This document shows, piece by piece, positions 6,117 to 42,794 of a DNA stretch of 64,000 nucleotides. The position numbers and the translations under genes are program-made. Under the pieces are notes generated by a model. It did no database searches and was not told the DNA's origin. It saw only the letters and a program-made list of their open reading frames with translations. Source of the stretch: Candidatus Gottesmanbacteria bacterium (GTDB lineage Bacteria > Patescibacteriota > Microgenomatia > UBA10105 > UBA927); contig JACREN010000044.1 in assembly GCA_016218255.1 (NCBI GenBank), forward strand, positions 2,489 to 66,488, read 5' to 3'. Position 1 is the stretch's first letter, and each line of letters starts with the position of its first letter.

Positions 6117-9055
6117 TGTATCCGCGCAGAATAAACTTCAAGGCTTGAAGGATTCGGAGAGCCGACAACGATAATCTTCCGTAAAATGCTGCCGCTGCAA
6201 TCTAATGCGGTCTGAACCGTTTGTCTTCCATGCTGAAGCGGAAATGAACGAAAGTGCCAAAGCCCCCCAATTAATGTCTTTTGGTTTTGATTCTGTTTAC
6301 TCCAGTCCGCATCCTCCGCGCACACCCAGGCAAGCAACATGGTTTTGTACCGAATAAGCGATGACAATGTTTCCTGTATCGAAAAATCGTTCACATAATG
6401 CCAATTGACCCCCGCAAGTTCAAATATCTTATCCGGAGAGTATTGTCTATTGCTAACCGGCTCAATAACGATCTCATCAAGCGATACAGGTGCGGAAGGA
6501 GTCTGCGTAATAACAATCTTCACCGAACGGTATATTCCAGGTATTACCGTCACCGCATGCATTCCGCCATTATTCGGGCTCCAAGAAATCTTTGTATCCT
6601 CACCTATGCGCCCTATCTTTACGTATGATTCTCCGTAACGCGATCCGTAGACTACGCCCTCTAGCGGCATGCGTTCACTTACCATATTTTTCGGTGTATT
6701 GAGCAATATTCTCCCCACATCTGTAGATTCCGCAAAAGAAAGTATTATCTCTATCGGCAAATTATTGTTTCCTAAATAAAATATTTCATCTGGAGCAGGT
6801 GATGGATCGGAAACAAATACTCCATCGATCAACGATTGCGCACGCACCCGCGCATCGGTTTCATCCAGGCCGGATACAGATGCCCGAATCCCCTGTCGAA
6901 TCAAATCAACCTTCTGGATAGCACGATTGATTTGTATCCGGTCATCCAAATTTATTTCTCCCAGTAGACGATCCTGAAAAGACAGCACAGTGAATGAAGA
7001 AAGGATTTCCTGGATGCTCCTTGCAGCTATCGGCGCGTATTCCTTTATCATCCACCAGAATTGTCCCGGTACGCGAGCTTCTTTTGGAATGATTACCGCA
7101 TCGGAAAATGGAAATTGAACATCCGGCAAAATATTCTGACCGAGAGAAATTTCCAACATCGTTGGCAGGAGCAATCTTTCCCCAATTTCACGGCTTGTAA
7201 GCATCGGGCGCTTTGCCAAATAGAGGGTTCCGTTCGTGTCTATTTTCGTAAATTCCGTCTCGGAAACGGCTTCTTCAAAGACGATGGGTACCGGTATAGA
7301 ATTCTCTTTTTCAAAGAAGATTCTTCTCGCCATCCCGGAAATATTCGCAAACACTGACGTCTCAGGATTAGCATAAAAAGCAAAAAACCTGTCCTTCGTA
7401 TATATGCCGGATTCTATAAGATTGCGGATCTCCCGGACATCATTGCTATAAAATAACTCATCCGTTCGATAAAATCCGTATAGCCACCGCCAGCCGGCAA
7501 CATTGACATCAAGTGCATTCCGGACGGGATTTACGGAATAGATAAGCTTCGGCTTTCCGTCGCGGGGAACCATAGCAAAAAATTTATCGATCAACGCCCT
7601 CTCTTTATTACTGATACCCTCAACTATGCCCCGATGACCCTGAATACTCACCATGCTATTCCCCATCAACACGACGAGAGTTACTATCCATCCGACACGA
7701 CCGAATACGATTCCTTTTTTGCCCCAAAGCCAATAAAGACCCACGCCAAACAGCGTACTCACGCCCACAGCGGCAGCAAAAACATATCTCGCTCCCGGGC
7801 CATACGGAGGTGTTATGCGGGAAAAATAAAACGGAAAAAACAATAAATCGCTTTTTGTAGTGATGTAAAGCGGGACGTAAAACATACTGCTCAAGATCAA
7901 TACGACAGAAAAAACAAGAATTTTCGTCACCCAATGCTGGTTTTTCAACCGAAACAACGCGAGAAAACCGATAATAATAAAGCCGATTAAGGACACCAAT
8001 CCGATCCCATATATCAAATACTGCTCAATAAATGGATTTAACACCAGACTTCCGATCCACATCCGCATGGATGGAAAAGCGCCAATAGCATTTGGCATCA
8101 CCAGTTGAGCCATATAATATGCCAAACGCTCGCTGTAGATATCCCATCGGAACGGAGACGCAACCACAACATTGCTCTTCTTCAATACTCCCTCAAGTAC
8201 TGCAGACCATCCGCCTGGAATAAGACGGATTCCGATAAATCCAAGCCACACCAATCCGATCCCAAAGCTCTCTCCCAGACGCATTATAATGCTGCGTTTC
8301 CGCTTTGCTGGCATCCAGAGGATCGCGAAAAGTCCGAACACCAAACCGGCAATCCGTACAAAACCCATTTTGACTGAAGCGATAAAAAATAGTAATGAAA
8401 GCAGATAATATATACTCGCGCGTTTTTGGGAGTAGCGATAAAGAAAAATAAATGAAAGTATATGAAGACCTAATACCAATGGCATACCCTGGGCATTAGC
8501 CTGCCATGAAAACACATCCAAAAATACCGGTGTAGTGGCAAAATACAATGAAGAAAGGAGTGCAATACTTTTTTTATTACTTATGACAAATACTAAAAAA
8601 TATAAACTCACAGCGGCAAAAATAAACCAAAAAAGAGAAACAATATTGTAGAACCACGCATTTGTACCGAACAAAAGATAAGAAAGTACAAATGACGCGA
8701 ATGGATAGCCGTTTATAATGTAATGGAACGGAAAACCTGCAGCGCCATTAGTAACGGGCGTTAATATAGAAGAGCTGTCTTCGGCAAAAAAATAGTAGCG
8801 GAGAATCAATCCGTGCGCGATAACACCTGCAGTCAGTAGTATTCCAATCTGGATCTTATGCTGAGAAATAGTTCTTGCTATCGGGCGAACGAGGTTGCTT
8901 TGCAATAAAAAAATAACGGCTATCACCATTGGCAACGATTGATCTATCACATAGCTCCACCCGACTCCGATTCGGGACTCAAGCCAAACGTAAAGTCCCG
9001 CATTAAAACTCATTATGCTGTAAAAAATTGCCGCAATAATCCACATTAGCGTCAT
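6113..9055 (-). CDS. Large polytopic membrane protein with a C-terminal extracytoplasmic domain of about 500 aa (GT-C-like, function unknown)
   Basis: 980 aa. The N-terminal ~480 aa are strongly hydrophobic with many helices; the C-terminal half is soluble. It has a 4-nt overlap with both flanking genes. Confidence 0.5.
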   Translation of the reverse strand: MTLMWIIAAIFYSIMSFNAGLYVWLESRIGVGWSYVIDQSLPMVIAVIFLLQSNLVRPIARTISQHKIQIGILLTAGVIAHGLILRYYFFAEDSSSILTPVTNGAAGFPFHYIINGYPFASFVLSYLLFGTNAWFYNIVSLFWFIFAAVSLYFLVFVISNKKSIALLSSLYFATTPVFLDVFSWQANAQGMPLVLGLHILSFIFLYRYSQKRASIYYLLSLLFFIASVKMGFVRIAGLVFGLFAILWMPAKRKRSIIMRLGESFGIGLVWLGFIGIRLIPGGWSAVLEGVLKKSNVVVASPFRWDIYSERLAYYMAQLVMPNAIGAFPSMRMWIGSLVLNPFIEQYLIYGIGLVSLIGFIIIGFLALFRLKNQHWVTKILVFSVVLILSSMFYVPLYITTKSDLLFFPFYFSRITPPYGPGARYVFAAAVGVSTLFGVGLYWLWGKKGIVFGRVGWIVTLVVLMGNSMVSIQGHRGIVEGISNKERALIDKFFAMVPRDGKPKLIYSVNPVRNALDVNVAGWRWLYGFYRTDELFYSNDVREIRNLIESGIYTKDRFFAFYANPETSVFANISGMARRIFFEKENSIPVPIVFEEAVSETEFTKIDTNGTLYLAKRPMLTSREIGERLLLPTMLEISLGQNILPDVQFPFSDAVIIPKEARVPGQFWWMIKEYAPIAARSIQEILSSFTVLSFQDRLLGEINLDDRIQINRAIQKVDLIRQGIRASVSGLDETDARVRAQSLIDGVFVSDPSPAPDEIFYLGNNNLPIEIILSFAESTDVGRILLNTPKNMVSERMPLEGVVYGSRYGESYVKIGRIGEDTKISWSPNNGGMHAVTVIPGIYRSVKIVITQTPSAPVSLDEIVIEPVSNRQYSPDKIFELAGVNWHYVNDFSIQETLSSLIRYKTMLLAWVCAEDADWSKQNQNQKTLIGGLWHFRSFPLQHGRQTVQTALDCSGSILRKIIVVGSPNPSSLEVYSARIQ

Positions 9056-10458
9056 TTATTTTTTGAGTATAATACCAAAGCATCCATACGCATCACTTCA
9101 CGGTAATTCTCTCTCATATACGCCAGAAACGGCCATGTGGAAAGCCCGCGGGGCAAATCCGGATGAGCCCAGTCAAACACAATAGCTGCTGGAGGGTTGC
9201 TAGTAAATACCTTCGTTGTTTCAACAAATGGCTCGAGAATAAACGGCGTAAAATTCGTATATTTATTTGCAGGAAGACGGTCAGACAACAAATAGATCAT
9301 CTCGCTCCCGTAGCTTATAATACGGTCTTGCTTATGCGTATTCTCATTTATCCAGACAGCCATTCTTTTTTCAAAATCCCCCCAGTCAGTCAAATATTGC
9401 TCACGGTGAAAACCGTTATCTCTAACAAAACCATTGTATGCACTCATATACCGTGATACCAACGTCATATATCCTATAAACCCGCACACAATGGATAAAC
9501 GGACCCAAGCAGTGTTCTTTTTATGCAACAAACCACGGATCAAATAACCGGCTGCGACGGAAACAAGAGCAAAACTGGTAAATGTCCGATAGGATAAGTA
9601 TGACGGCAACAAAGACGGAATAAGCGCGACAACAAAAAGTGTCAACAAAATAGCTGTCTTCCGTTGCATCCCCAATTGTTTCCATAAGAAAACACAAGGC
9701 AAAAGAAGAATGCCATATGCAAATTCGATATACAAACCGTCCCCGTGATCCAAAAGAGTGAAATTCCGGTATGGACCAACCACAGTATACAGAGAATAAT
9801 ACAGAAAATCGTACAGTGCTCCACGAAAGAAAAAGTATACCCCTATCAAAATAAACGGAACGGTCAACCCAAAGACATATACAAAGCTGCTCCTCATCAG
9901 ACGACTCATAGATTGCTTCCTAATATATAGATAGAATTGAAAAAACGGCAAGATTAAGACCACAAAAATGGTGTTTTGTTTGGTTGCGACAGTAAAGCCC
10001 GCACATATACCCGCTGCTAATGCCCAAACCGGCCGGTTTGTTAACGCATACTGATGAATCAAGAAAAACAGCAAAAGAACCAATAATCCCACCATTAGTT
10101 CGCCCACTTCCACATTGAGGAAGAGTGGAAACAGAAAGACCAAAAAAAATATACACGCCGGATATACTATCTTTCTGTCAATTCTCTTCAAAACCCACAG
10201 AAATATCGACACCAACAGGCCAAACATTACCCAAATAAATAACTGATACGCTGATCCGCTCGCGCCAAACAGTCTGTACCAAGCTGATAACAAAAACATA
10301 TCGAACGGCATACGAAGCCAAATGATATCCTTATACAGCGTTAATCCCTTTGTCATAAACCAGGGATAAATCACACCGGCAGTCCAAACGTGAAATGGAA
10401 GAAAATATATATTAGCAGTTATCCATAAAAGAGACACGAGATACAACATACCCGCCAT
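9052..10458 (-). CDS. Polytopic membrane protein, paralog of 13104..14486 (GT-C/GT87-like candidate)
   Basis: 468 aa. It shares with 13104..14486 an N-terminal 'ITANIYFLPFHVWT...LYKD' region and a TM 'TKQ(N/T)' element. The start codon is ATG at 10458. Confidence 0.5.
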   Translation of the reverse strand: MAGMLYLVSLLWITANIYFLPFHVWTAGVIYPWFMTKGLTLYKDIIWLRMPFDMFLLSAWYRLFGASGSAYQLFIWVMFGLLVSIFLWVLKRIDRKIVYPACIFFLVFLFPLFLNVEVGELMVGLLVLLLFFLIHQYALTNRPVWALAAGICAGFTVATKQNTIFVVLILPFFQFYLYIRKQSMSRLMRSSFVYVFGLTVPFILIGVYFFFRGALYDFLYYSLYTVVGPYRNFTLLDHGDGLYIEFAYGILLLPCVFLWKQLGMQRKTAILLTLFVVALIPSLLPSYLSYRTFTSFALVSVAAGYLIRGLLHKKNTAWVRLSIVCGFIGYMTLVSRYMSAYNGFVRDNGFHREQYLTDWGDFEKRMAVWINENTHKQDRIISYGSEMIYLLSDRLPANKYTNFTPFILEPFVETTKVFTSNPPAAIVFDWAHPDLPRGLSTWPFLAYMRENYREVMRMDALVLYSKNK

Positions 10459-10498: not shown

Positions 10499-11332
10499 AT
10501 GAACGCAGTGATCTTTACCAGTAGCCATCACATGCTCGCCAATTATATCATTAAGCATTTGCTCTCTATGCATGATCTGAATATCGTTGCGATCGTGGAA
10601 TCCGACGCTGTATATCCGGGCAAAGGAAAGTGGCAGTCGCTTATATTTATGATACGGAAATCCGGATTACAGTATGTTGGATCCCAGATAATCAAATTCC
10701 TTTATTTTCATATCGGAAGCACCCTATACGGCTTCTTTCCCGGCAATAAACCGTCACACATTCTCTATTCGTATCATGAAATAACAAAGACTAAACATAT
10801 TCCTATTTTACTTGAAAAAAATATCAACACACAAACATTCATTACCACAATGCAATCACTCAAGCCTGATCTGTTTGTTTCTATTTTTTTCAACCAGATA
10901 TTCAAAAAAAATGTACTTTCGTTGCCAAAGAGAGGTACTATAAATCTCCATCCGGCATATCTTCCGTCATACCGGGGATTAAGTCCGACATTTTGGGTAC
11001 TTGCAAACGGCGAGCATCATACCGGCATCACCGTGCACCGTATAGACAGTGAGGCAATTGACGCTGGACAAATTTTAGGTCAAATCCGGATCCCCATTCT
11101 TGCACAAGATACGGAATACTCCCTTTATTGGCGATGCGTCCGAATGGGCGTTCCTTTGCTTGAGGATATCATTACTTCAATTGATCGAAACAAACGAAAC
11201 CATGCAAAACCTGATAGCCGCGTTAAGCCTAGCTATTTTTCTCTCCCAAAAAAGTCTGATGTCAATCGATTCTGTGCCCGCGGGAGAAAATTTTTAACGC
11301 TTCGGCAACTCGTCGGTTCCCCGAAGTTTTAA
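10499..11332 (+). CDS. Formyltransferase-domain protein (ArnA-N/Fmt-like sugar-nucleotide N-formyltransferase)
   Basis: 277 aa. 'INLHPAYLPSYRGLSPTFWVLANGEHHTGITVHRIDSEAIDAGQIL' matches the formyl_trans_N catalytic core (N/H/D). It is the only plus-strand gene in the first 21 kb and sits between the aminotransferase genes. Confidence 0.75.
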   Translation: MNAVIFTSSHHMLANYIIKHLLSMHDLNIVAIVESDAVYPGKGKWQSLIFMIRKSGLQYVGSQIIKFLYFHIGSTLYGFFPGNKPSHILYSYHEITKTKHIPILLEKNINTQTFITTMQSLKPDLFVSIFFNQIFKKNVLSLPKRGTINLHPAYLPSYRGLSPTFWVLANGEHHTGITVHRIDSEAIDAGQILGQIRIPILAQDTEYSLYWRCVRMGVPLLEDIITSIDRNKRNHAKPDSRVKPSYFSLPKKSDVNRFCARGRKFLTLRQLVGSPKF

Positions 11333-12016
11333 TGAGGCGATCGTATAAGATATAAACATTGGAATGAATCTTGATTTGCTTTCTCCGTAAGGACGGTTAC
11401 GGTAATATACCGGAATTTCATAAAATGTGCCTCCCGCTTGTTTCACTTTTGTTATTAGCCGCATAAAATAATCTCCATACCCGGCAAATAATCCGGCATC
11501 CGAATTTCCGAGTGAAAGGATAAATTTCCGGTCAACACAAAAAAATCCGCTTAAAAAATCAGTAACAGGAAGATGGAATAACAGTCGAAGATATATATTA
11601 AAAAATCGGCTGAGCCAATACCGTCGCGAGTTCTCCATACCGCCACCGGTAATATACCGCGATCCAATAGCAAGTGTTGCTTTTCGACAAGCCTCACCAA
11701 GCTTCGGAATCACAGATGGATCATGGCTCAAGTCTGTATCCATTACCACGACCTGTTTACCCCTGGCTTTCTGAACACCAAACCATATTGCAGAAGCCAG
11801 TCCCCGCTCTTTTTTTCTGACGAAAACCCGAACTGAACGTTTTCCTCTAAACGCATGTTTACATACCACAGCAGTACCATCAGGACTGCTATCGTCGACA
11901 ACGATAGCTTCATATTTCGCTTTCGCAAACAATGCAGTACGAAAAATGCTCTTTATGAGTGGGATAATATTGCCTTTTTCGTTATAAGTTGGAAGAATAA
12001 CGGAAATATCGATCAT
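11294..12016 (-). CDS. Family-2 glycosyltransferase, DPM1-like polyprenol-phosphate sugar synthase (soluble form)
   Basis: 240 aa with motifs 'ISVILPTYNEKGNI', 'VVDDSSPDGT' and 'VMDTDLSHDP', which are DPM1/Ppm1-type. Its 3' end overlaps the formyltransferase 3' end convergently by 39 nt. Confidence 0.8.
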   Translation of the reverse strand: MIDISVILPTYNEKGNIIPLIKSIFRTALFAKAKYEAIVVDDSSPDGTAVVCKHAFRGKRSVRVFVRKKERGLASAIWFGVQKARGKQVVVMDTDLSHDPSVIPKLGEACRKATLAIGSRYITGGGMENSRRYWLSRFFNIYLRLLFHLPVTDFLSGFFCVDRKFILSLGNSDAGLFAGYGDYFMRLITKVKQAGGTFYEIPVYYRNRPYGESKSRFIPMFISYTIASLKLRGTDELPKR

Positions 12017-13107
12017 ACAACACGCAGAATACGAACTATTTGTTTGCAGATATACCGTATATCCTTTTCTGTCACTTTTGCACTCGACGGTAGGCTCATG
12101 CCCCGATCCGAAATATCATCTGAATTCGGAAATGATTTCTTTTTTTTATACATCGGCAAACGATGCAAGGGTACAAAAAATGGCCTTGTTTCAATTCGTG
12201 CGCGAGCGAGTTCTTCCATAAGATATTTTCGGACCGAACAGGAAGGTAAAAGAATGGAATACATCCAATAAATATTACGTGCCCATTCTATGCCAGGCGG
12301 CAAAACAATCCCCCGAACAGATTTTAGAAGCGTATTGTATAGGGCTGCATGTTTTCGTTTTGCAGTAAGAACGACGTCAATGTGCTCCAATTGCGCCAAG
12401 CCGAATGCCGATTGAAGATTAGTTAATCGGTAATTAAAGCCAATTTCGCTATGCATATATTGTTTCTTCTGATCCTGTGCATGAGCCTTCAGATAGGCGA
12501 TCCGGTCGATAATCCCTTTATTGCCGGATACCACCATGCCTCCCTCACCAGTCGTCATAACCTTATTCCCGTAAAAACTAAAACACCCTACATCACCAAT
12601 GGAACCAACTTTTTTGCCTTTATATAGCGCTCCGTGAGACTCACATGCATCTTCTATTACAAGAAGATCATGTTCCCGCGCAACCGCAAGTATTGGATCC
12701 ATATCCGCGGGATGACCGAACAAATGCGCGACAATAATCGCTTTAGTTTTTTTCGTAATGCTACGTTTAATCGCACCAGGATCAATATTCCATGTCTCCA
12801 TGTTTATGTCTGCTAAAACCGGAGTAGCTCCAGCATAGACAACGACATTCGCTGTTGATACAAAAGTAAAATCCGGTACGATCACTTCATCTCCTGGTCC
12901 AATACCTAAAGCAACCAATGCGAGATGAAGCGCTGCAGTTCCACTCGCAACACTGGTTGCATGAGCCACACCACAAAACTTCGCAAATTTATTCTCAAAC
13001 AGATCGACATACGATCCATGCGATATCCAAGTGGATTTTATACAATCCGTCACGTACTTGAGTTCATTTCCCAAAAGTATCGGTTCTGATGCGGGTATAA
13101 TTTTCAT
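12013..13107 (-). CDS. DegT/DnrJ/EryC1-family PLP-dependent sugar aminotransferase
   Basis: 364 aa with 'ATSVASGTAALHLAL' and the catalytic Lys in 'FSFYGNKVMTTGEGG'. The start is typical, 'MKIIPASEPILLGNELKYV'. Confidence 0.85.
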   Translation of the reverse strand: MKIIPASEPILLGNELKYVTDCIKSTWISHGSYVDLFENKFAKFCGVAHATSVASGTAALHLALVALGIGPGDEVIVPDFTFVSTANVVVYAGATPVLADINMETWNIDPGAIKRSITKKTKAIIVAHLFGHPADMDPILAVAREHDLLVIEDACESHGALYKGKKVGSIGDVGCFSFYGNKVMTTGEGGMVVSGNKGIIDRIAYLKAHAQDQKKQYMHSEIGFNYRLTNLQSAFGLAQLEHIDVVLTAKRKHAALYNTLLKSVRGIVLPPGIEWARNIYWMYSILLPSCSVRKYLMEELARARIETRPFFVPLHRLPMYKKKKSFPNSDDISDRGMSLPSSAKVTEKDIRYICKQIVRILRVV

Positions 13108-14486
13108 AACGTATAAATACCAATCGTGTCAAACTCTTGTTGGAGTGTATAGTTCTGACGCAAAAAGTCAAGGAAACCCCATCCGGAGAGCTCCGGCCAA
13201 TCATCTATCAGTCTCCGGTCGTACACGACCACTTTAGGCGGTTTACTTATCAGCTCTGCAGTGGTCTGAGCAAACGGTAAATAATCAATGGGCATTCCGC
13301 CCACGTACCTGTTAAACGGCAGTCTGTTCGCCCTCATCATTATAATGTTATTTGCCATGTTAAACACTTTTTCTGTTTCTTCGGTGTTATCTCGCAACCA
13401 ACGCGCAGCCGCCAGTTCGTTCTCGCTATAATCTACGAGATATTGATTAGGAGAGAAACCATTATCAAGAATGTATCTTCTATATTCATTGACCGGTCTA
13501 ATGATAGATATCAAAAAAACTATAAAGGCCGAAACAAACAACATCTTTCTGGGGGTATTTCCTTTCGTTTTTATATATGTGTTTGCCTCCAGCAATACGA
13601 ACGCTGCGCCAATACACAACAGTGGAAAAGAGGCGACCAAACGGTATGACCAATACGAGGGTAACAGCATAACAAAAAGTGCCAGTATGAATCCCGATAA
13701 CAAATGTTTTACCTTTGACTGTGAGATACTTGTTCTCGCGATCAACAAAAAAGGCACGAGAATTGCCATATATACGCCTATCATATTCAACGCGGTATTT
13801 ATCCCCCATGCCTTTGCCCACCCTTTGTATATTGTCGCTACAAAAAGAAGACCCTGGATATAGTCATTGAGCGCACCATGAAACCAAAGAAACAGAACAA
13901 CAGCAGCCACTGGCATAAGCACTCCCAGGCTATATAGGCCAATCCATTTCCATCGTTTCCACAAAAAAAGAACCATAACAAGGATCAATACACCCGAAGT
14001 CTGCTTCGTCATAAGGCTTAAACCGGAAAATAGTCCTGCCCAGATAAGCCATATCGGCTTATTGCGCCGGGTTAACTCCCAAGAAGAGAAAAACGTGCAC
14101 AACGCAAAAAAACCAACGAGTATTTCCTCTATCTCTGCGTTTGAAAATAAGGGGAACAAAAACACAATAAACATGCTATAAGCAAGCAGCGCAAGTCTTA
14201 GGGATAATTTCCGGAGATATCCAAACAATAGAAATCCTGTCAGTAGAAATACTACTGCTACGACCAGCTGGTAACTTATTGGATGTACGCCGATAATTTT
14301 ATACACGGCCGCCAGCAGCGATATATCAATCATGCCTCTGTTCCATAGATGATCTCTATACGGCAATAGTCCCCGAAGAAGCAACCATGGCCGATACAAA
14401 CCTTCGGTCCAGGGATAAAAGGGAAGTAAAAAAATATTTACCGTTATCCAGATACTTCCCAAAGCTAAAACGATAAAGGGAATCAT
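13104..14486 (-). CDS. Polytopic membrane protein, paralog of 9052..10458 (GT-C/GT87-like candidate)
   Basis: 460 aa. N-terminus 'ITVNIFLLPFYPWTEGLYRPWLLLRGLLPYRDH' is collinear with the 468-aa paralog. It shares the 'MTKQT' TM element. Confidence 0.5.
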   Translation of the reverse strand: MIPFIVLALGSIWITVNIFLLPFYPWTEGLYRPWLLLRGLLPYRDHLWNRGMIDISLLAAVYKIIGVHPISYQLVVAVVFLLTGFLLFGYLRKLSLRLALLAYSMFIVFLFPLFSNAEIEEILVGFFALCTFFSSWELTRRNKPIWLIWAGLFSGLSLMTKQTSGVLILVMVLFLWKRWKWIGLYSLGVLMPVAAVVLFLWFHGALNDYIQGLLFVATIYKGWAKAWGINTALNMIGVYMAILVPFLLIARTSISQSKVKHLLSGFILALFVMLLPSYWSYRLVASFPLLCIGAAFVLLEANTYIKTKGNTPRKMLFVSAFIVFLISIIRPVNEYRRYILDNGFSPNQYLVDYSENELAAARWLRDNTEETEKVFNMANNIIMMRANRLPFNRYVGGMPIDYLPFAQTTAELISKPPKVVVYDRRLIDDWPELSGWGFLDFLRQNYTLQQEFDTIGIYTL

Positions 14487-14488
14487 AG

Positions 14489-15265
14489 CTATTTCACAGC
14501 CTCAACATAACAAAGAGGCCAAAATAACCGGTATTTCAGAAGTGATTGAATAAATCGCCGAAACCACTTCGGAATAAACGCAATAGGGTAATACATGGGA
14601 AAATACGCGACTGTTTTGACCGTGAACCCGGCTTTTAAGAATAACTGTCGCAATTGTCCCGGCGTAAAGGACTGTTCATAACCGTAATGCAAATATTTAC
14701 CACTCATCCACTTCAAATGAAACCATTCCATGAGTTGCCGAAGAATCGGCACATTAGGTATATCGCCCCGCAACTGATGATATGTAAGAGTGGTAAGAGA
14801 AACGACCGGAACAACGGCGATCATCGTCCCTCCCGGCTTAAGCACTCGATATGCCTCCTTTATCGCTTTCTTCGTACTCCGAACATATTCCAAAGACATG
14901 CAGGACCAAATAAATGAGAACTCATTTTCACGAAATGGCAACGCGAGCAAATTTCCTTGAACAAAAAATCCACGGCTGCCACGTTTTTTGAATAATTGTT
15001 TCGATTTGATAACCGCTTCTTTGGTTATATCTACACCGGTCACATGCCCTCCTGATTGGGCAACCAAGCTCGACACCCATGCAACGCCGCACCCAAGGTC
15101 CAAAAACGAAATGGAGTTCCATTTTCTATGATACTTCAAAAGAAATCGCCAATAGGATTGAATGGTAGGATCTTTTTCTATCACTCGGTCAAGAGATTCT
15201 TTCTTATGTAATCCTTCCCACCGCATCTTGGACAGCAGTACATCTGTGGTAGCTATAGGTTTCAT
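14489..15265 (-). CDS. Class I SAM-dependent methyltransferase
   Basis: Motif I 'FLDLGCGVAWVS' and post-I 'VTGVDI', then 'VLKPGGTMIAV'. The ORF track extends to 15394. An internal ATG ('MKPIATT') at 15265 gives an ATGA overlap with the upstream gene that ends at 15262. Confidence 0.75.
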   Translation of the reverse strand: MKPIATTDVLLSKMRWEGLHKKESLDRVIEKDPTIQSYWRFLLKYHRKWNSISFLDLGCGVAWVSSLVAQSGGHVTGVDITKEAVIKSKQLFKKRGSRGFFVQGNLLALPFRENEFSFIWSCMSLEYVRSTKKAIKEAYRVLKPGGTMIAVVPVVSLTTLTYHQLRGDIPNVPILRQLMEWFHLKWMSGKYLHYGYEQSFTPGQLRQLFLKAGFTVKTVAYFPMYYPIAFIPKWFRRFIQSLLKYRLFWPLCYVEAVK

Positions 15266-16173
15266 GAGATCGATACGTCTGCCATGCCTATCTGATAAAA
15301 ATAATTCTTTCTGCCGCTGTAATACAGAACAAGTCTGTTCCCCTCCCTGTAAGGACATGCACGGCTTGCAGAAATCGCGTCCCATGATCCCCAAGTCACA
15401 TCAAGGACAGGATTAGCCGAATATTTTTTCCAATGAATCAAATCACGACTTTCAGCCGCACCGGTCCGCTCAATACCTGAAGCGTCGATACCGCTGTAAA
15501 ACATTACATACACACCGCCATATTCGATAACTCTGGGATCGGATATGCTTTTCTCATCCCATGCACCCGCACTTCCCACATCCAGAACCGGCTTCGGAAA
15601 CCGTGTAGTAATCGACGACAATGTCTTTCCGGTCGCCAGACCTACCCGTTCCCGCTCGCCGTCATGGCCGGCATAATACATATAGTATATGCCCTTTTTC
15701 CGATAAACCGCGCACCGGCTCACATGCCGCTTTTCCCACCACGCCGCACCGACACGAAAAATCGGATTTGACGGATACCTTCGCCAATTAACGCCATCCG
15801 TGCTATCCGCCAGACCGATCTCTTCCAGCCAGTCTCCAACCCTGCTTCCGTCATAAAGCATGGATATATTTTTTCCGTGGTCAAACACATACGCATGAGC
15901 GGTAAAATCGCTATCCCACGAATCTTCTACTCCGTTTGGTAACGCCACCACCCCCGTTTTTACCCAATGCGTCAGACTCTCACCTCTTGCTGCAAGCGTA
16001 TAATGCCGGATTCCTAATCCGATGCTTTTTCCGGTATAAAAAAGCAAACGGTGCTTCCCCAAGCGGACTGCCACAGGATGATACGCCCACAACGCATCAG
16101 GGGCAAAAAAATTACCGGAAAATATTCCCGGAGAAAGAATCGGCTTAGGATATTTTTTAATCTGAATTCTCAT
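15262..16173 (-). CDS. Five-bladed beta-propeller glycoside hydrolase/phosphorylase-like protein (GH130/GH43-like fold)
   Basis: 303 aa with repeated W-D/E blade signatures: 'SWDSDFTAHAYVF', 'GAWDEKSISDPRVIEYGGVYVMFYSG' and 'GSWDAISASRA'. This resembles GH130 mannoside phosphorylases. Confidence 0.45.
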   Translation of the reverse strand: MRIQIKKYPKPILSPGIFSGNFFAPDALWAYHPVAVRLGKHRLLFYTGKSIGLGIRHYTLAARGESLTHWVKTGVVALPNGVEDSWDSDFTAHAYVFDHGKNISMLYDGSRVGDWLEEIGLADSTDGVNWRRYPSNPIFRVGAAWWEKRHVSRCAVYRKKGIYYMYYAGHDGERERVGLATGKTLSSITTRFPKPVLDVGSAGAWDEKSISDPRVIEYGGVYVMFYSGIDASGIERTGAAESRDLIHWKKYSANPVLDVTWGSWDAISASRACPYREGNRLVLYYSGRKNYFYQIGMADVSIS

Positions 16174-16180
16174 GTTTTGC

Positions 16181-16819
16181 TCATTCAGTATTCTTTTTTG
16201 TAATTATCGCTGCATTATACGCACAAAATGCTCTTGGCATAAGATGTTCCATGATGAACTCGTATATCTTAAACAACGGTAGAAACGCCGAAGGATAGAG
16301 ATGAGCCTCAAAAAAACGAAACGAAATCGTATCCTCACTAAATACAGTCCGCACCAATTTCATAAAGTATGATTGTATAAAATGGTCGTGTCCGCGCATG
16401 CGCACCATATGAGGATAGAATAACGGGTTGTACCGATTACCTTCAACAATCACTACTGACCCGCCCGGCTTACATACCCGCCGCAATTCTCTCAGTCCTT
16501 CTTTGTGTTTATCCGTGCGCTGTCTTCGTTCATCGATATGGTGCAGGACGTCATGAACAAAAACATAATCGAATGCATCACTCTTATAAGGCAATGCGTA
16601 TATGCTTCCCAATGTGAAACGGGACCGAAAACGCCCCATGGCGTTATGTCTGTATATATCTGTACCCCTCCATACTAATCCATACTCCCGTAAAAAGATT
16701 TCTGCGTCAGTTCCCTCACCACATCCCACGTCTAATATAACACTTCCCTTTCTCCAGGAGACTCCAAGCTTATTAAAAAAATCATTCTTATATTGATTGT
16801 ACCGGGTAATACGTTTCAT
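16181..16819 (-). CDS. Class I SAM-dependent methyltransferase
   Basis: 212 aa with motif I 'ILDVGCGEGTDA' and 'VCKPGGSVVIVEGN'. Confidence 0.75.
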   Translation of the reverse strand: MKRITRYNQYKNDFFNKLGVSWRKGSVILDVGCGEGTDAEIFLREYGLVWRGTDIYRHNAMGRFRSRFTLGSIYALPYKSDAFDYVFVHDVLHHIDERRQRTDKHKEGLRELRRVCKPGGSVVIVEGNRYNPLFYPHMVRMRGHDHFIQSYFMKLVRTVFSEDTISFRFFEAHLYPSAFLPLFKIYEFIMEHLMPRAFCAYNAAIITKKNTE

Positions 16820-16832
16820 CGAAGATGAAATA

Positions 16833-17954
16833 TCACAATTTATGATATTTTCTAATGGCAGTATGTCCTAATATAATCTTTACCACCTTTTCCGATACAT
16901 TGACATCGCGGTAGTCAGCGGGAATAACCCGATGTTCCTGGAACTCACCTGTCGCCATTTTAATCGCATCATTTAACGCATCTTTATGAAATCCGGTTAC
17001 GATAATAGACCCTGCATCAAAAGCTTCGGGTCGTTCCGTGGATACCCGCACTTGCACAGCCGGAAAACCTGCGATTGCGGATTCCTCCTGTATCGTACCG
17101 CTATCTGAAATAACACAGAAGGCATTTTTTTCCAGTCTTGCGAATTCTAAAAACCCAAACGGTTTATGACAGTGAATAAGCGGATGCAACGAACCCAATG
17201 ACGCCAGTTTTTTCTGAGTTCTGGGATGCACAGATAGCAAAACAGGCTTCTTATAAGCATCTGCCAGACTACCCAATGAAGCAAATAGCTCACGGATTCT
17301 GTCCGGCTTTTCTATATTTTCCTCTCTGTGAACGCTGACAAGAAAATATCCCCCTGGTATAAGATTCAAATCAGTAAGCACAGTATTACCGGATATAGCA
17401 GAATTATAATAAGCAAGAATTTCCGCGTATGGACTTCCGGTGACAAATATAGTTTTTGGGTGAAGTCCTTCACGGATAAGATACCGCCTGGCATGTTCCG
17501 TGTAACAAAGATTAAAATCGCTGATATGATCCACAATTCTCCGATTTACTTCCTCCGGCACATCCCAATCGAACGAACGATTTCCTGCTTCCATATGGAA
17601 AATGGGAATATGCATCCGTTTAGCGATCACCGCCGACAAGCAACTATTGGTATCTCCCAATACGAGAAGTGCATCAGGCATTTCTTTTTTAAGGACTGCT
17701 TCCGATTGTTCAATTATTCGCGCGATCTGCCCCCCCAGGGAATCTGACTTCACATCCAAAAAGTAATCAGGTCTTCGAAGCTCTAATTCCTCAAAAAAAA
17801 TATCGCTCAATTCATAATCATAACTTTGCCTCGTATAGACCATGATGTGATGAAAATACTCATCCAGTTTCGGCAACACCCGTGATAAACGGATAATTTC
17901 CGGCCGAGTACCAACTATAGACATAATGGTCAATGACTTTTTCTGTTGTTTCAT
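16833..17954 (-). CDS. UDP-N-acetylglucosamine 2-epimerase family (WecB/FnlC/CapG-like)
   Basis: 373 aa with 'MSIVGTRPEIIRL' and 'HMEAGNRSFDWDVPEEVNRR', which are epimerase_2 signatures. Confidence 0.85.
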   Translation of the reverse strand: MKQQKKSLTIMSIVGTRPEIIRLSRVLPKLDEYFHHIMVYTRQSYDYELSDIFFEELELRRPDYFLDVKSDSLGGQIARIIEQSEAVLKKEMPDALLVLGDTNSCLSAVIAKRMHIPIFHMEAGNRSFDWDVPEEVNRRIVDHISDFNLCYTEHARRYLIREGLHPKTIFVTGSPYAEILAYYNSAISGNTVLTDLNLIPGGYFLVSVHREENIEKPDRIRELFASLGSLADAYKKPVLLSVHPRTQKKLASLGSLHPLIHCHKPFGFLEFARLEKNAFCVISDSGTIQEESAIAGFPAVQVRVSTERPEAFDAGSIIVTGFHKDALNDAIKMATGEFQEHRVIPADYRDVNVSEKVVKIILGHTAIRKYHKL

Positions 17955-19006
17955 TTTTTTTGAATTTGTATTAGCTCATCTTGTATTTCAGAGAGCCCGG
18001 ATAATATCCGTACAACCTCTTCAACCTTTGCACGGGGAGTATTTTCAGATGTATATGCCTCCTTCATGGATTCAAGCTTTCGTTCACCGTCCAAAAAATA
18101 ACGGTTGTACTCTAGCCCCTGACTTTCCGGTGGGATATCAAAATAGCTACCACGGTCTACTACCCGAGCAAGTTCTTCACATGTCAAAAGCGTTTCATGG
18201 TATTTCTCTCCTGCCCGAATACCAACTTCGCGATACCCTTTTGCGTGTGAAAAAATTCTGCACACAGCTTCTACTAGCACACCCACAGTACACGCACGCG
18301 ACTTCCGCACATACAGATGTCCATTTTCTCCATTTACAAGCGCATACAATACCAAATCAACCGCTTCCGGCAATGGCAGAAGAAATCGAGTCATCGAAGG
18401 GTTGGTCACAGGCAGGGTGTTATTTTTTTTAACCTGCTCAATAAAAAATGGAAGCACCGACCCCCGCGAATAAAGGACATTCCCGTAGCGCACACCGCAA
18501 AAAACAGTATGCTTGTTTCCACTCTCCGAGAGCTTCCGCGCAGCAGCGACCATAACCTTTTCCATAATCGCCTTAGTCATCCCCATAGCATTTATGGGGT
18601 ACGCCGCCTTATCCGTACTCAAAATCACAACCCTGGATACGTCGGCAGCAATTGCGCTATCCAGCACATTCTGGGTGCCTAATACGTTTGTTTTAACGGC
18701 CTCAATTGGAAAAAATTCACATGACGGCACCTGCTTGAGCGCAGCCGCATGGAATACAAAATCCACTCCGTCCATGGCTTCTGAAACACTAGCTCCATCC
18801 CGCACATCGCCAATAATAAATCTTAAAAGCCGCGAATTATAATAGTTTCGCATGTCAAATTGCTTCTTTTCATCACGGCTGAAAATGACTATCCGTGCCG
18901 GCTCAAGTGACAATAGTTTTTCAATAACCGTATTGCCAAATGATCCCGTTCCCCCAGTTATTAAAATCGTTTTATTTTTTATATGCTCTCTGACGCTTTT
19001 TTTCAT
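17951..19006 (-). CDS. UDP-GlcNAc 4,6-dehydratase/epimerase of the CapD/FnlA/PseB family
   Basis: 351 aa with 'KTILITGGTGSFGNTVIEKLL' and 'IVIFSRDEKKQ', which are Polysacc_synt_2 short-form hallmarks. Confidence 0.8.
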   Translation of the reverse strand: MKKSVREHIKNKTILITGGTGSFGNTVIEKLLSLEPARIVIFSRDEKKQFDMRNYYNSRLLRFIIGDVRDGASVSEAMDGVDFVFHAAALKQVPSCEFFPIEAVKTNVLGTQNVLDSAIAADVSRVVILSTDKAAYPINAMGMTKAIMEKVMVAAARKLSESGNKHTVFCGVRYGNVLYSRGSVLPFFIEQVKKNNTLPVTNPSMTRFLLPLPEAVDLVLYALVNGENGHLYVRKSRACTVGVLVEAVCRIFSHAKGYREVGIRAGEKYHETLLTCEELARVVDRGSYFDIPPESQGLEYNRYFLDGERKLESMKEAYTSENTPRAKVEEVVRILSGLSEIQDELIQIQKK

Positions 19007-20175
19007 AATGATAAAGCACGGATGACATTAATTGTGTATAGAGTGTTGTAGTCAAAACGCCGAACGTACGATATCGCACATTTTCTATATGAGGTATGCA
19101 ATTTTTCGTCCGTCAGGAACCTTACTATAGCACGAACCAATGCTTCTTTTCTATAAGGAACGACGATCCCGCACCTATGAATTTGTATATCGCGGGCGCT
19201 GGCAATTGCATCTGTTACCACTACCGGTAACCCGCATACCATATAGTCCTTTATTTTCCCTGGATCTGCATTTTTTACTTTTTCATCCAGAATATACGTA
19301 TTAAATGGTGCAACACCTACCGCGCCTCGGCATAGTATTCGTTCAAGCTGTTTCCGGTCAGTTACCCAACCGTAAAAGCGGACATACTTTGTGAGATGCA
19401 ATATGGCAGTCAACTTCTGAAGTGCCTCCATCTGCTCGCCCCCCCCGACAATAACTAACGACGCATCTGGTACCTTCTTACGTATATCAGCAAATGCGCG
19501 AATAAGCATATCTACCCCCATATGCATCACAAGGTGACCGGAAAAAACAATGAGACGAGTGTTGATTTGTGACCGCGGCAGGCGCTTCACCTGATCAAAC
19601 CAAATGCCAATCGGAACCGTATGCTGACTACCCATCTCCCCCTTAGAGCGGTGAAATTTCCTCCTCGCAGCAACCATGGCTTCTGACACATTCCATGTTT
19701 CATCAGAATGTCGCACACAAAATAAATCAATTGCATGATACAGTCGATTCATGAATGGATTTGCGAATCGAGTCGGGAAATAATCAATCGTATAATATAC
19801 AACCCGCCGTACTATGCCCAATCGTTTCAAAAATAGCCCCAGAAGTGCGTTCATATTATCAACGCCGATAAACAAATCAAATCTCTTTCCCGCTTGAAGG
19901 ATACGGCCCAGAGCGAATAACGCTTCAAACCCTGAACTTAATACGACATTACGAAACCGCACTGGTGCACGAACACCAGAAACGATGTTATTACCGCGGC
20001 TGAGCTCTGCAAAGGATCGATCAAAATCATGAACATCTGCCATCGGCAATGGATGGCTTATATAAAGCAAATTCCGGCACCCATGAACGCGCAAAAAATC
20101 TCTCATCGCCTGTGAAGCAGAATACACTCTGGCATGGGTAGCCAAAATAATTGACGATTGTTTAATGATATTCAT
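19003..20175 (-). CDS. GT4 (GT-B fold) glycosyltransferase
   Basis: 390 aa. The C-terminal Glycos_transf_1-type region 'LVIVGGGEQMEALQKL...FYGWVTDRKQLERILCRGAVGVAPF' has the E-x7-E-like pattern. Confidence 0.7.
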   Translation of the reverse strand: MNIIKQSSIILATHARVYSASQAMRDFLRVHGCRNLLYISHPLPMADVHDFDRSFAELSRGNNIVSGVRAPVRFRNVVLSSGFEALFALGRILQAGKRFDLFIGVDNMNALLGLFLKRLGIVRRVVYYTIDYFPTRFANPFMNRLYHAIDLFCVRHSDETWNVSEAMVAARRKFHRSKGEMGSQHTVPIGIWFDQVKRLPRSQINTRLIVFSGHLVMHMGVDMLIRAFADIRKKVPDASLVIVGGGEQMEALQKLTAILHLTKYVRFYGWVTDRKQLERILCRGAVGVAPFNTYILDEKVKNADPGKIKDYMVCGLPVVVTDAIASARDIQIHRCGIVVPYRKEALVRAIVRFLTDEKLHTSYRKCAISYVRRFDYNTLYTINVIRALSL

Positions 20176-20987
20176 AGTCCCAATGTCCTACCCAATCCCT
20201 CATAAATCAATGTGGTCGGCTCCCACCCCAATATTTGACTCGCACGCGAAAAGGAACAAATTGGGAGTACTGATTCCTTATTCGGCGATGGCGCATACGA
20301 TACTGAAATTTCTTTTCCAACCAATTTACTCATTGTATGAATAAGCCCATTGATAGATACTCGTTCTCCTGAGCAAACATCGATTACTGGACAAATTTCC
20401 ACCCCTCTATACATAACCGACCGAAATATTGCTAAGGCAGCATCTTTCACATAGAGATAATCACGAATTTGCTTACCATCTCCATGAACCACGATCGGCT
20501 TTCCGGACTGGATTAGGTGAGCGAATGTCGAAATTGCTGAATTATAAAACGGACGGCCACCGGGGCCATAAAGATTCGAAAAACGCAATACTACTGCCCG
20601 CATTCCCCTTGATCTGCTTTCATATCCAATCACCTCTTCAGCGCATCGCTTGCTCCAACCGTAAAAACTATTCTTCCATGCTGCCTGCACGGATGAAGCA
20701 AATATTAGCGCTGCCTTCGGACAGTATAATCGCATCGCTTCCATAAGGCGGACGGTACCTAGCAGATTTACCTTCGCCAGCTTATAATTCGTATCACGGT
20801 TAGCTCCGGCGAGATGCACTACTGCAGACGCTCCTATCAATAATTCCGAAAGGGATTGAGGAATGAATAAGTCTTGCGTTTCTTTTTTTAGAAATGACGT
20901 GGTAACTGATTCTTGCTGAAAGAGTTGCATCACATGAGCACCAAGGAATCCTGTTGCCCCGGTGATAGCAATTTTTTTCGTTTTCAT
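20172..20987 (-). CDS. Short NAD(P)-dependent SDR, sugar-nucleotide reductase/epimerase-like
   Basis: 271 aa with 'KIAITGATGFLGAHV' and 'YGWSK' (YxxxK). Its position after a CapD-like dehydratase suggests a 4-reductase role. Confidence 0.65.
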   Translation of the reverse strand: MKTKKIAITGATGFLGAHVMQLFQQESVTTSFLKKETQDLFIPQSLSELLIGASAVVHLAGANRDTNYKLAKVNLLGTVRLMEAMRLYCPKAALIFASSVQAAWKNSFYGWSKRCAEEVIGYESRSRGMRAVVLRFSNLYGPGGRPFYNSAISTFAHLIQSGKPIVVHGDGKQIRDYLYVKDAALAIFRSVMYRGVEICPVIDVCSGERVSINGLIHTMSKLVGKEISVSYAPSPNKESVLPICSFSRASQILGWEPTTLIYEGLGRTLGL

Positions 20988-21864: not shown

Positions 21865-22449
21865 ATGAAAAAAATAATCCAATCTTCTTTAGTACTGTTT
21901 ATTTCGGTATGTACTGTTCTATTGATCCCGCTAAGCAAATCGTTTGCCCAAGAGGTTCTCTCCGTACAAAGCGAATCAACTCCTATATATGTAGAATATG
22001 AACTGGCCTTTCCAGGTATGTTGCCGGATCACCCTCTCTATAAAGCAAAAATAATGCGCGACCGAATCATGGCCTTTGTCACCTCCAACCCTCAAAAACT
22101 TGCTGACTTTTATCTTCTTCAGACAGATAAGGGCATCTTAGCAGCTGCTATGTTAGTCGACAAAAATAACTCCAAGCTCGCCGCAACAACAGCGCTCAAA
22201 GCCGAACACAACTTCACTTTGCTGACGCAGCAATTGTTCCGGTTCCCCAAGAAGCCGGAGACAGCCTTTTATCAAAAACTAAAAACTGCCGCTGCGAAGC
22301 ATCAGGAAGTACTCGCATCTCTTGAAAAAAGAACAACAGGTGAAGAAGCAAAAACCTTTGAAACAATTATCGAATTTTCAAAGAAAAACGTGCAGACAAT
22401 CACCGATTTTCAAACGAAAAAGACCTTCGAAGAATCGCTTCTGGAATAA
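21865..22449 (+). CDS. Small secreted protein with a 'Y-x-L-x-[FY]-P-G-x-[LM]-P-[DG]' motif, paralog of 47857..48372
   Basis: 194 aa. The N-terminus is a signal peptide, 'MKKIIQSSLVLFISVCTVLLIPLSKSFAQE'. 'YVEYELAFPGMLPDHPLYKAKIMRDR' aligns with 'YVLPYPGSMPGSKFYLLSRIADS' of the paralog. Confidence 0.6.
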   Translation: MKKIIQSSLVLFISVCTVLLIPLSKSFAQEVLSVQSESTPIYVEYELAFPGMLPDHPLYKAKIMRDRIMAFVTSNPQKLADFYLLQTDKGILAAAMLVDKNNSKLAATTALKAEHNFTLLTQQLFRFPKKPETAFYQKLKTAAAKHQEVLASLEKRTTGEEAKTFETIIEFSKKNVQTITDFQTKKTFEESLLE

Positions 22450-22464
22450 TGCTATAATACCACC

Positions 22465-23415
22465 ATGCAAAAAAGCAGTGTAAATCCGGAGCTGTCCGTT
22501 ATTATTCCTGTTTACAACGAAGAGCAATCACTTCCGATACTGCACAAAGAACTCATTTCGGCACTCGAAAAAATCGGGTACACTTTTGAAATCCTCTATG
22601 TAGATGATGGCTCTACGGATCGCTCCCAAAATATACTCAGACGATTAACAAATCCGCGAGTTCATCTCATTACATTTCGGGCCAACTTCGGCAAATCGGA
22701 AGCACTTGCTGTTGGTTTTAGAACTGTAAAAGGGCGATATATTATCACGATGGATGCGGATCTACAAGATGATCCAACACAAATCAAACTGCTACTCGAT
22801 AAACTCATTTGTGGATATGACCTAGTGAGTGGCTGGCGCGTAAAACGAGAAGATACAAAGACAAAAAAAATCTCAAGCTTTCTTTTTAATAGAGGGACAT
22901 CGCTCCTCTCGGGCGTGAACCTACATGATGCGAATTGCGGCCTGAAAATATTTACCAAAGAAGTAGCGGATCAGATATCGCTTTACGGTGAGCTCCATAG
23001 ATTCATTCCAATTCTGGCTGCCAAAAAGAAATTCCGTGTCGCTGAATTACCTATTCATCACCGCAAAAGAAAATTCGGTGTCTCCAAGTATGGCTGGGAA
23101 CGCGGTTGGCGTGGAATCATTGATTTATTTACCACTCTCTTTGTCACGGATTACGCTACAAAACCTGCACACTTCTTTGGAAAAATTGGACTTCTCCTTT
23201 TCATAATAGGATTTATCATGGACGGATATGTCACCGCTCTAAAAATATTCACCGGCACCACACAGGGAAGAATCCCTCTGTTTCTTGCTGGTATATTGTG
23301 TATGGTCCTCGGAGTACAACTGCTCTCAACAGGACTTATTGCGGAGATGATGACGTACTATTTCCTGCGCCGGAATCCAAAAACCACACCCGGGCACGGC
23401 GGACCTGAACAATAG
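22465..23415 (+). CDS. Family-2 glycosyltransferase, polyprenol-phosphate sugar synthase type (GtrB/ArnC-like) with C-terminal TM helices
   Basis: 316 aa with 'LSVIIPVYNEEQSL', 'VDDGSTDRS' and 'ITMDADLQDDP', plus two C-terminal hydrophobic helices. Confidence 0.8.
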   Translation: MQKSSVNPELSVIIPVYNEEQSLPILHKELISALEKIGYTFEILYVDDGSTDRSQNILRRLTNPRVHLITFRANFGKSEALAVGFRTVKGRYIITMDADLQDDPTQIKLLLDKLICGYDLVSGWRVKREDTKTKKISSFLFNRGTSLLSGVNLHDANCGLKIFTKEVADQISLYGELHRFIPILAAKKKFRVAELPIHHRKRKFGVSKYGWERGWRGIIDLFTTLFVTDYATKPAHFFGKIGLLLFIIGFIMDGYVTALKIFTGTTQGRIPLFLAGILCMVLGVQLLSTGLIAEMMTYYFLRRNPKTTPGHGGPEQ

Positions 23416-42790: not shown

Positions 42791-42794
42791 ACTT

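Follow-up and report, generated by a model that had tools for sequence, protein, structure and literature searches.

The locus

The DNA considered here is a stretch of 64,000 nucleotides (nt) of contig JACREN010000044.1 from Candidatus Gottesmanbacteria, a lineage of the candidate phyla radiation (CPR), and is referred to below in its full length as the window. Our subject is a group of three adjacent genes at positions 14489-16819 of the window, in which a protein with a glycoside hydrolase (GH) fold, here called the propeller, is encoded between two class I S-adenosylmethionine (SAM)-dependent methyltransferases, MT1 and MT2.

16819..16181, minus strand: MT1, 212 amino acids (aa); Pfam Methyltransf_11, E 2e-13; SAM motif VILDVGCGEG
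16173..15262, minus strand: propeller, 303 aa; five-bladed beta-propeller of the GH43/GH117/GH130/GH137 fold
15265..14489, minus strand: MT2, 258 aa; Methyltransf_11, E 1e-22; motif FLDLGCGVA
15262..15265, minus strand: ATGA overlap, the propeller stop TGA (15264-15262) sharing bases with the MT2 start ATG (15265-15263)

The original prediction described the propeller as coupled through this ATGA to a class I methyltransferase and as followed by a second one. The coupling is as described, but the second methyltransferase, MT1, lies upstream, ending 7 nt before the propeller begins, and the propeller thus has a methyltransferase on either side. The three genes are one conserved sugar-tailoring block within an 11-gene operon that occupies a single (minus) strand from 21859 to 11294. 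In order, this encodes a family 2 glycosyltransferase (GT2), a short reductase of the short-chain dehydrogenase/reductase (SDR) type, a GT4, an FnlA-like dehydratase/epimerase, a UDP-HexNAc (uridine diphosphate N-acetylhexosamine) 2-epimerase, MT1, the propeller, MT2, a GT-C membrane glycosyltransferase (PMT_2-like), a DegT aminotransferase and a further GT2. Overlaps of 4 nt are found at seven of the ten junctions and are not particular to that between propeller and MT2.

All three genes are real rather than chance open reading frames (ORFs), since NCBI lists a hypothetical protein of Candidatus Gottesmanbacteria (HY948_04685) with 100% identity to the propeller, which has around 65 full-length relatives and a confidently predicted fold. 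A longer MT2 ORF, started by a TTG at 15394, was rejected: the closest orthologues share the MK... start that the ATG at 15265 gives, and the extension overlaps the conserved C-terminus of the propeller.

The propeller fold and its family

An alignment of 59 family members (A1) was used both as input for AlphaFold and for the conservation counts given below. The resulting model (mean predicted local distance difference test score 96.2, predicted template modelling score 0.93) is a five-bladed beta-propeller with blades at residues 29-78 (I), 90-132 (II), 150-191 (III), 209-250 (IV) and 268-302 (V), the last together with an N-terminal strand at 3-7. Fold comparison places it with the GH130/GH43-type propellers, superposable on GH130 structures. 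The GH130/GH43-like fold originally proposed is therefore borne out by structure prediction and fold search, as is, with the content of the operon, the presence of a glycosidase-fold protein among glycan-synthesis genes; a BNR or sialidase propeller, the outcome that would have spoken against the proposal, is not what was found. The close structural neighbours are all hydrolases or phosphorylases. No signal peptide could be read at the N-terminus and the protein is thus presumably cytoplasmic.

The full-length relatives are roughly 300 aa in length, share 38-72% identity with the propeller and come from Gottesmanbacteria, Levyibacteriota, 'Patescibacteria' and two metagenome-assembled genomes labelled Gammaproteobacteria. 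A search of the GTDB species representatives (185,579 genomes) gave just three true orthologues, and a Paraburkholderia relative (32% identity) has an unrelated gene context. No description of the family was found in the literature searched, and literature searches on DUF377/GH130-like proteins accompanied by methyltransferases in polysaccharide clusters, and on CPR glycosylation, gave nothing relevant. The propeller belongs to a small, metagenome-only family that stands apart within a known fold superfamily and has an altered active centre.

The family profile also matches giant tandem-propeller proteins built from the same blade type, among them P0108 (5844 aa, with 28 matched stretches) and P0121 (5469 aa). 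Such giant multi-propeller proteins, found among P0108-P0121, dominate the exhaustive profile search, which does not delimit the orthogroup.

An altered active centre

The propeller matches the Pfam model Glyco_hydro_130 (PF04041) with 42.4 bits against a cut-off of 26, but over residues 204-252 only, paired with model positions 93-140; all 59 family members match the model. This match sets blade IV (with its SDPR motif) against the blade II motif of the model and is thus out of register. Other Pfam matches are weak (GINT1_N, GH32N and GH43, the last with 22.4 bits against a cut-off of 32.2), and the NCBIfam GH130 equivalogs are not reached (45 against 450 bits and 36 against 550). Sequence identity to the GH130 beta-1,2-mannoside phosphorylases is 16-17%. 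Comparisons with GH130 structures by HMMER and hhalign are likewise blade-shifted, the best local pairings setting blades III-IV or I-III against GH130 blades I-II or II-IV. In an hhalign comparison with a small alignment of GH130 sequences, each of the five blade rotations had a significant score (157, 142, 129 for the natural register, 113 and 93), so that local matches of this kind carry no positional information. We therefore rejected them as proof of a GH130 catalytic aspartate, the +2 rotation keeping the DPR motif alone. Neither the Pfam GH130 match nor the automatic name 'beta-1,2-mannobiose phosphorylase' attached to a distant relative (P0068) should be trusted; both come from one blade matched in the wrong register.

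The invariant catalytic aspartate of GH130 is Asp142 in BT3780 and Asp104 in Uhgb_MP, and mannose is bound at the -1 subsite by Asn74 and Asp363 of BT3780 (PMC4599007). In the full-length structural register, the GH130 signature residues fall as follows.

Asn of FNP: His32 (57/59 members)
Arg of YRA: Thr47
Glu-Asp of EDPR, with the invariant catalytic Asp: Ala92-His93
Lys of NKD: Lys148 (kept)
Arg of HRR, phosphate-binding: inserted loop Ala168-Gly-His170-Asp171-Gly-Glu
His of YHG, phosphate-binding: Ser227
Asp of AAD: Lys289 (Lys/Arg in 50/59 members)

Just one of the eight signature residues, a lysine, is retained. The residue checks that the original prediction had suggested come out negative: the catalytic aspartate is absent, its place being taken by His93, and of the phosphate-binding residues the arginine falls in an inserted loop and the histidine corresponds to Ser227. 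The Glu pair of the GH130 hydrolases is not present either. On sequence grounds, the idea that the propeller is a GH130 enzyme in detail, or a mannose phosphorylase, is largely refuted in silico.

Nor is the GH43 triad of Asp/Asp/Glu (base, pKa modulator and acid) present; in the match to 4qqs it aligns with His32, Ser152 and Ser211. GH137, a beta-L-arabinofuranosidase (PDB 5mt2/5mui), aligns with the propeller in the natural register at the sequence level (E 3e-14), but differs from it in being the N-terminal domain of a large pectin-degrading enzyme (BT0996). The catalytic Glu240 of GH137 (BT0996 numbering; a glutamine in the mutant chain 5mui) corresponds to Glu175, which is found in 58 of the 59 members and which HMMER pairs through the motifs GERVG and RERVG. 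Glu159 is reportedly the second catalytic residue of GH137 (Ndeh et al. 2017); it aligns to Leu116, with the conserved Glu117 adjoining and a 5-residue insertion alongside, making the pairing ambiguous.

In place of these residues the family has a signature of its own. Asp87 and Asp206 are present in all 59 members; His93, His150, Arg153, Ser152, Asp108, Glu117, Glu175, Asp212 and Asp265 in 58; His32, Arg176 and Arg271 in 57; and His170 and Asp171 in 56. Five of them (His32, His93, Arg153, Asp212 and Arg271) lie three residues into the innermost strands that start at 29, 90, 150, 209 and 268. As the fourth residue of each such strand, they are predicted to occupy equivalent positions around the propeller axis and so to form a ring, around which lie His150, His170-Asp171 and Glu175. 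The net basic character of this ring suggests that the pocket may hold an anionic group such as phosphate. The signature core is kept in clades at 36-43% identity, including one without an adjacent methyltransferase, and at around 15 polar positions of the funnel conservation stays at 95-100% even where overall identity is just 36%. This conservation of the polar core argues that the propeller is an enzyme. Substitutions of Asp108, Ser110, Lys148, Arg288 and Lys289 are confined to the clade without MT2.

A near-obligate methyltransferase partner

MT1 and MT2 are both class I SAM-dependent methyltransferases, with a Rossmann-like fold and a glycine-rich motif I. To see which genes accompany the propeller, 40 loci encoding a close relative were fetched and scanned with the window proteins, MT2 adjacency being counted only in the 33 loci with at least 400 bp downstream. 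MT2 lies directly 3' of the propeller in 29 of these 33 loci (around 24 of 27 once near-identical contigs are collapsed), the exceptions being L023 and a divergent clade (L037-L039). For MT1, 18 of 31 loci have it immediately 5' of the propeller, and three others have it immediately after MT2.

The propeller and MT2 families are of similar size (around 65 and around 58 cluster representatives, beyond which MT2 scores fall from E 1e-37 to 1e-13), and in 16 loci the distance of the propeller from its window copy goes along with that of MT2 (Spearman 0.83). The MT1 family is about five times larger, with at least 297 members, and elsewhere follows a GT4 in the absence of a propeller. Because of the matched family sizes, the co-divergence and the far larger MT1 family, we regard the propeller and MT2 as the specific unit, MT2 being a near-obligate partner, whereas MT1, the looser partner of the two, is of a kind common among CPR glycan methyltransferases and is frequently recruited.

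Around half of the MT2 orthologues (P0272, P0274, P0287, P0290, P0296, P0300 and others) have a Trm112-like zinc ribbon at the N-terminus (PF03966, CPxC...CxxC), which is missing from the window MT2; the region upstream (15266-15394) holds only 'CKPC..C', which is either a remnant or a chance match.

What follows MT2 varies. The GT-C enzyme comes directly after it in the window and in L003, L004 and L006 (orthologues at E 1e-112 to 1e-150) and one gene further on in L007, with the same gene order and sizes in L008 and L040. Otherwise MT2 is followed by a Pyr_redox_3/flavin-containing monooxygenase (FMO)-like flavoprotein and a small protein (L001, L005, L022, L028 and the contig of P0064). The flavoprotein (as in the block at 11823-13234 of L001) is 338-342 aa in length and has Pyr_redox_3, FMO and Lys/Orn N-hydroxylase signatures; the small protein is 114-123 aa and, in the cases looked up, matches no Pfam family. 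A locus whose propeller is as little as 38% identical (P0064) still shows this arrangement, a hint that the tailoring block may include amine or redox chemistry.

In the divergent clade L037-L039 the propellers are 40-43% identical to that of the window and keep the catalytic core with no adjacent class I methyltransferase. In L039 (8959-12858) the propeller comes after a GT4 and before an unknown protein of 461 aa, with a CDP-alcohol phosphatidyltransferase and a B12-binding radical-SAM enzyme next in line. The radical-SAM enzyme of this clade may be a C-methylase.

The adjoining sugar pathway

Immediately upstream of MT1, and beyond MT2, the operon carries the following genes.

16833..17954, minus strand: non-hydrolysing UDP-HexNAc 2-epimerase (WecB/FnlC/WbvD-like); Epimerase_2, E 2e-89; NCBIfam wecB, 233 bits, cut-off 210
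17951..19006, minus strand: UDP-GlcNAc 4,6-dehydratase/5-epimerase (FnlA/CapE/WbvB-like); Polysacc_synt_2 and Polysacc_syn_2C
19003..20175, minus strand: GT4 glycosyltransferase; Glycos_transf_1 and Glyco_trans_1_4; conserved in the cassette
20172..20987, minus strand: short SDR reductase, 271 aa; Pfam Epimerase; NCBIfam UDPAcbARedWbcJ, E 6e-26, partial
13104..14486, minus strand: GT-C membrane glycosyltransferase (PMT_2/ArnT-like); Pfam PMT_2; 2 nt after MT2

The FnlA-like enzyme matches the NCBIfam models FnlA (E 4e-116, below the equivalog cut-off) and PseB (E 3e-94), and the short reductase resembles the N-terminal domain of the 4-keto reductases WbcJ/FnlB/CapF. FnlABC, CapEFG and WbvBRD are known routes to UDP-2-acetamido-2,6-dideoxy-L-hexoses. 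The genes at 16833-20987 match the enzyme types of these pathways (FnlA/FnlB/FnlC, CapE/CapF/CapG and WbvB/WbvR/WbvD, with their GT4s), although here the reductase is short and the cupin is encoded elsewhere in the window (29262-29648). The cupin may serve the propeller cassette in trans, as a homologue adjoins the reductase in L001 and L004. To our knowledge, none of the described Fnl, Cap or Wbv clusters contains the pair of propeller and methyltransferase.

Across the related loci the recurrent order is (reductase)-(cupin)-GT4-FnlA-like-epimerase-MT1-propeller-MT2, and the FnlC-like epimerase is no more than two genes upstream of the propeller in 17 loci. Judged by their sequences, these conserved neighbours would make a UDP-2-acetamido-2,6-dideoxy-L-hexose of the L-QuiNAc/L-RhaNAc (N-acetyl-L-quinovosamine/N-acetyl-L-rhamnosamine) or L-FucNAc/L-PneNAc (N-acetyl-L-fucosamine/N-acetyl-L-pneumosamine) type, the epimer not being readable from sequence, and the GT4 is presumed to be the transferase for this L-HexNAc. 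No mannose-activating gene was found in the conserved cassette when the loci were scanned with the window proteins. Of the methylated and/or beta-linked mannosides that the locus was first thought to make, a methylated glycan is plausible, but the beta-linked mannoside is not, the neighbours being L-HexNAc genes, none of them linked to mannose.

Possible functions of the propeller

Glycosidase-fold proteins are rare in biosynthetic operons, and repeatedly such a protein has proved to represent a new class of enzyme (GT108, MmpH and the dual-activity GH130 enzymes). The precedents cited in the original prediction, GH130 enzymes that run synthetically and transferases derived from this fold, are real: there are GH130 phosphorylases that also use GDP-mannose (guanosine diphosphate mannose), and there is the related GT108 family (PMC12814180). 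The mannosyltransferase/phosphorylases of GT108 in Leishmania have a GH130-derived fold, and their likeness to the present case lies in a glycosidase-fold propeller that synthesises from an activated sugar; a propeller transferase of the kind proposed below would differ from both GT108 and the dual-activity GH130 enzymes in its residues and in its sugar.

We tentatively suggest that the propeller acts, alongside MT2, at the anomeric centre of a methylated L-sugar, as a glycosidase-fold transferase with its own catalytic solution. This is the reading we prefer, with low confidence, and it draws on the fold and the operon, on the missing signal peptide and on the basic ring. An activated donor (a UDP-sugar, a sugar-1-phosphate or a polyprenyl-phosphate-sugar) would be held through its phosphate by the His/Arg ring, in which His32 stands in the place of the catalytic base of GH43 (an Asp) and His93 in that of the catalytic Asp of GH130, and Asp212 and/or Glu175 would provide acid/base catalysis. 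The 6-deoxy-L-HexNAc would be methylated by MT2 and MT1 and then transferred to the growing glycan, MT2 and the propeller working on the same sugar residue.

Several points weigh against this proposal. The cassette already holds a GT4, so that an extra transferase is not needed. The phosphate site of GH130 is not kept at equivalent positions, and both the geometry of the ring and its role in phosphate binding were read from secondary structure and alignments. Four near-invariant histidines are commoner in metal sites than in glycosyl transfer. The analysis did not place MT2 with either the O- or the N-methyltransferases, and the relatives of the propeller are all metagenome-derived, with none characterised.

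The main rival, itself unlikely, is a propeller-type N-deacetylase, that is, a metal-dependent de-N-acetylase/amidohydrolase in which histidines, with Asp171 or Asp212, would hold a divalent metal at the axis of the propeller. Such an enzyme would take the 2-N-acetyl group off the L-HexNAc, either on the UDP-sugar or after transfer, and MT2, perhaps with MT1, would N-methylate the amine; MT2 would then almost never occur without the propeller because it is the propeller that frees its amine. The four histidines fit such an enzyme, as do the His32, His93, Ser152 and Ser211 found at the GH43/GH130 carboxylate positions, and the sugar made by the neighbouring pathway is N-acetylated. The amine-N-hydroxylase-like (Lys_Orn_oxgnase/FMO) flavoprotein comes after MT2 in one subclade, and GINT1_N, the propeller domain of a plant GlcN(Ac) (glucosamine or N-acetylglucosamine) transferase, matches 51 of the 59 members. 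There is also a precedent for a propeller-type deacetylase in FpGalNAcDeAc, the N-acetylgalactosamine deacetylase of Flavonifractor plautii (PDB 6n1a/6n1b), although this is a larger chain of 503 residues to which the propeller is structurally less similar than to GH130 or GH137. However, the two arginines that share the ring with His32 and His93 would sit badly beside a metal, and the loci with the flavoprotein already carry a PIG-L deacetylase.

Rather less probable is a glycoside hydrolase that trims or recycles the methylated glycan, by analogy with the mycobacterial MeT1-MmpH-MeT3-ManT operon, in which a hydrolase of the cytoplasm cuts the mature polymer to supply the transferase and the methyltransferases with primers. 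The order methyltransferase, GH-like protein, methyltransferase beside a glycosyltransferase is the same, and the two operons share a logic, with all the products cytoplasmic (PMC9883506). Hydrolysis would suit the close structural neighbours, and also Glu175, the counterpart of the GH137 catalytic glutamate, and the conserved carboxylates Asp108, Asp171 and Asp212. MmpH, though, is an (alpha/alpha)6 barrel that is not homologous to the propeller, its sugar is mannose and its product a cytoplasmic polymer, and the likeness is thus one of analogy alone. The canonical GH43/GH130 catalytic carboxylates are gone, and the window, which holds at least ten GT-C enzymes, looks like an island for surface glycans rather than a locus for a storage polymer of the cytoplasm.

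The loss of those carboxylates would also fit a propeller that is a non-catalytic, sugar-binding subunit that presents a glycan or nucleotide-sugar to MT2, or sets chain length through a methyl cap. The strict pairing and co-divergence with MT2 would follow, as would the five residues that vary only in the clade without MT2. This is improbable nonetheless: the polar funnel is conserved even in the methyltransferase-free clade, which fits catalysis better, and no propeller-methyltransferase fusions were found among the listed relatives of the propeller and MT2.

Finally, a GH130-type beta-mannoside phosphorylase or beta-mannosyltransferase using mannose 1-phosphate or GDP-mannose is very improbable: there is a Pfam GH130 match above the cut-off, and the dual phosphorylase/transferase activity of beta-1,2-specific GH130 enzymes is documented (PMC12814180), but the match takes in just 48 residues, all in a single blade and out of register, the score stays below the NCBIfam GH130 equivalog cut-offs, and weak GDP-mannose transferase activity is a property of enzymes (the beta-1,2-mannoside phosphorylases Teth514_1788/1789, PDB 9fj8/7fip; subfamily GH130_6) whose catalytic Asp, -1 Asn/Asp, +1 Arg and phosphate-binding Arg/His are all replaced in the propeller, where the genetic context is one of L-HexNAc rather than mannose. 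The remaining probability falls to chemistry outside these readings.

The family is tightly defined and unannotated, with a clear signature, a near-obligate methyltransferase partner and a defined sugar pathway adjoining it. As a candidate for a new activity on carbohydrates it may merit a CAZy family of its own. It could conceivably be a family in which the GH43/GH130 carboxylates have been swapped for a His/Arg centre, providing either the first bacterial 'non-Leloir' transferase for a 6-deoxy-L-HexNAc or a second, independent propeller N-deacetylase/metalloenzyme. If the metalloenzyme version were true, it would feed an obligate methyltransferase partner and lead to N- or O-methylated L-amino sugars on the CPR surface. 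CPR/Patescibacteria are uncultured and depend on cell-cell contact, and the family is a potential first biochemical handle on their large unexplored surface-glycan machinery.

The wider glycan island

The whole window is a glycan-synthesis island. It encodes at least ten paralogues of the GT-C membrane glycosyltransferases (PMT_2, YfhO and weak ALG3 matches), a density of lipid-phosphate-sugar-dependent transferases that is unusual for a small CPR genome, and a second nucleotide-sugar cassette.

9052-10458, 13104-14486, 23336-25387, 33352-35397, 39123-40226, 49127-50722, 53313-54935, 54932-56554, 56551-57813, 57813-59297 and 60753-63230: GT-C paralogues
29262-33355, minus strand: second nucleotide-sugar cassette, with a cupin (29262-29648), a PseB/FnlA-like dehydratase, a DegT aminotransferase, a hexapeptide acyltransferase and a divergent Epimerase_2 protein

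Between GT-C genes (41213-52353) lies a run of ORFs of 370-540 aa without a Pfam match. The second cassette resembles the early part of pseudaminic/legionaminic acid synthesis, with no match to a NeuB-type synthase among the scanned window ORFs of at least 150 aa (all but 59290-60915).

Around the downstream end of the operon (10499-14486) is an Arn-like set comprising a formyltransferase (plus strand), an ArnC-like GT2, the DegT aminotransferase and the ArnT-like GT-C, with no ArnD-type deformylase. The propeller was considered as a substitute for ArnD and rejected, its stable neighbours being the FnlA-like and FnlC-like genes. Elsewhere among the propeller loci, DegT and a small GT2 come after the GT-C in L004 alone (L003 has neither), and no formyltransferase was called within 10 kb downstream in L004; the Arn-like set is therefore probably a separate module.

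DUF5667 proteins recur beside GT2 genes (21865-22449, plus strand, and 47857-48372, minus strand, in the window; 3318-3926 in L004). The island also contains a NodU/CmcH-type carbamoyltransferase (27492-29273, plus strand), found in L003 as well, and a GDSL-family protein (25354-27123, plus strand), which together suggest carbamoylated or O-acylated sugars.

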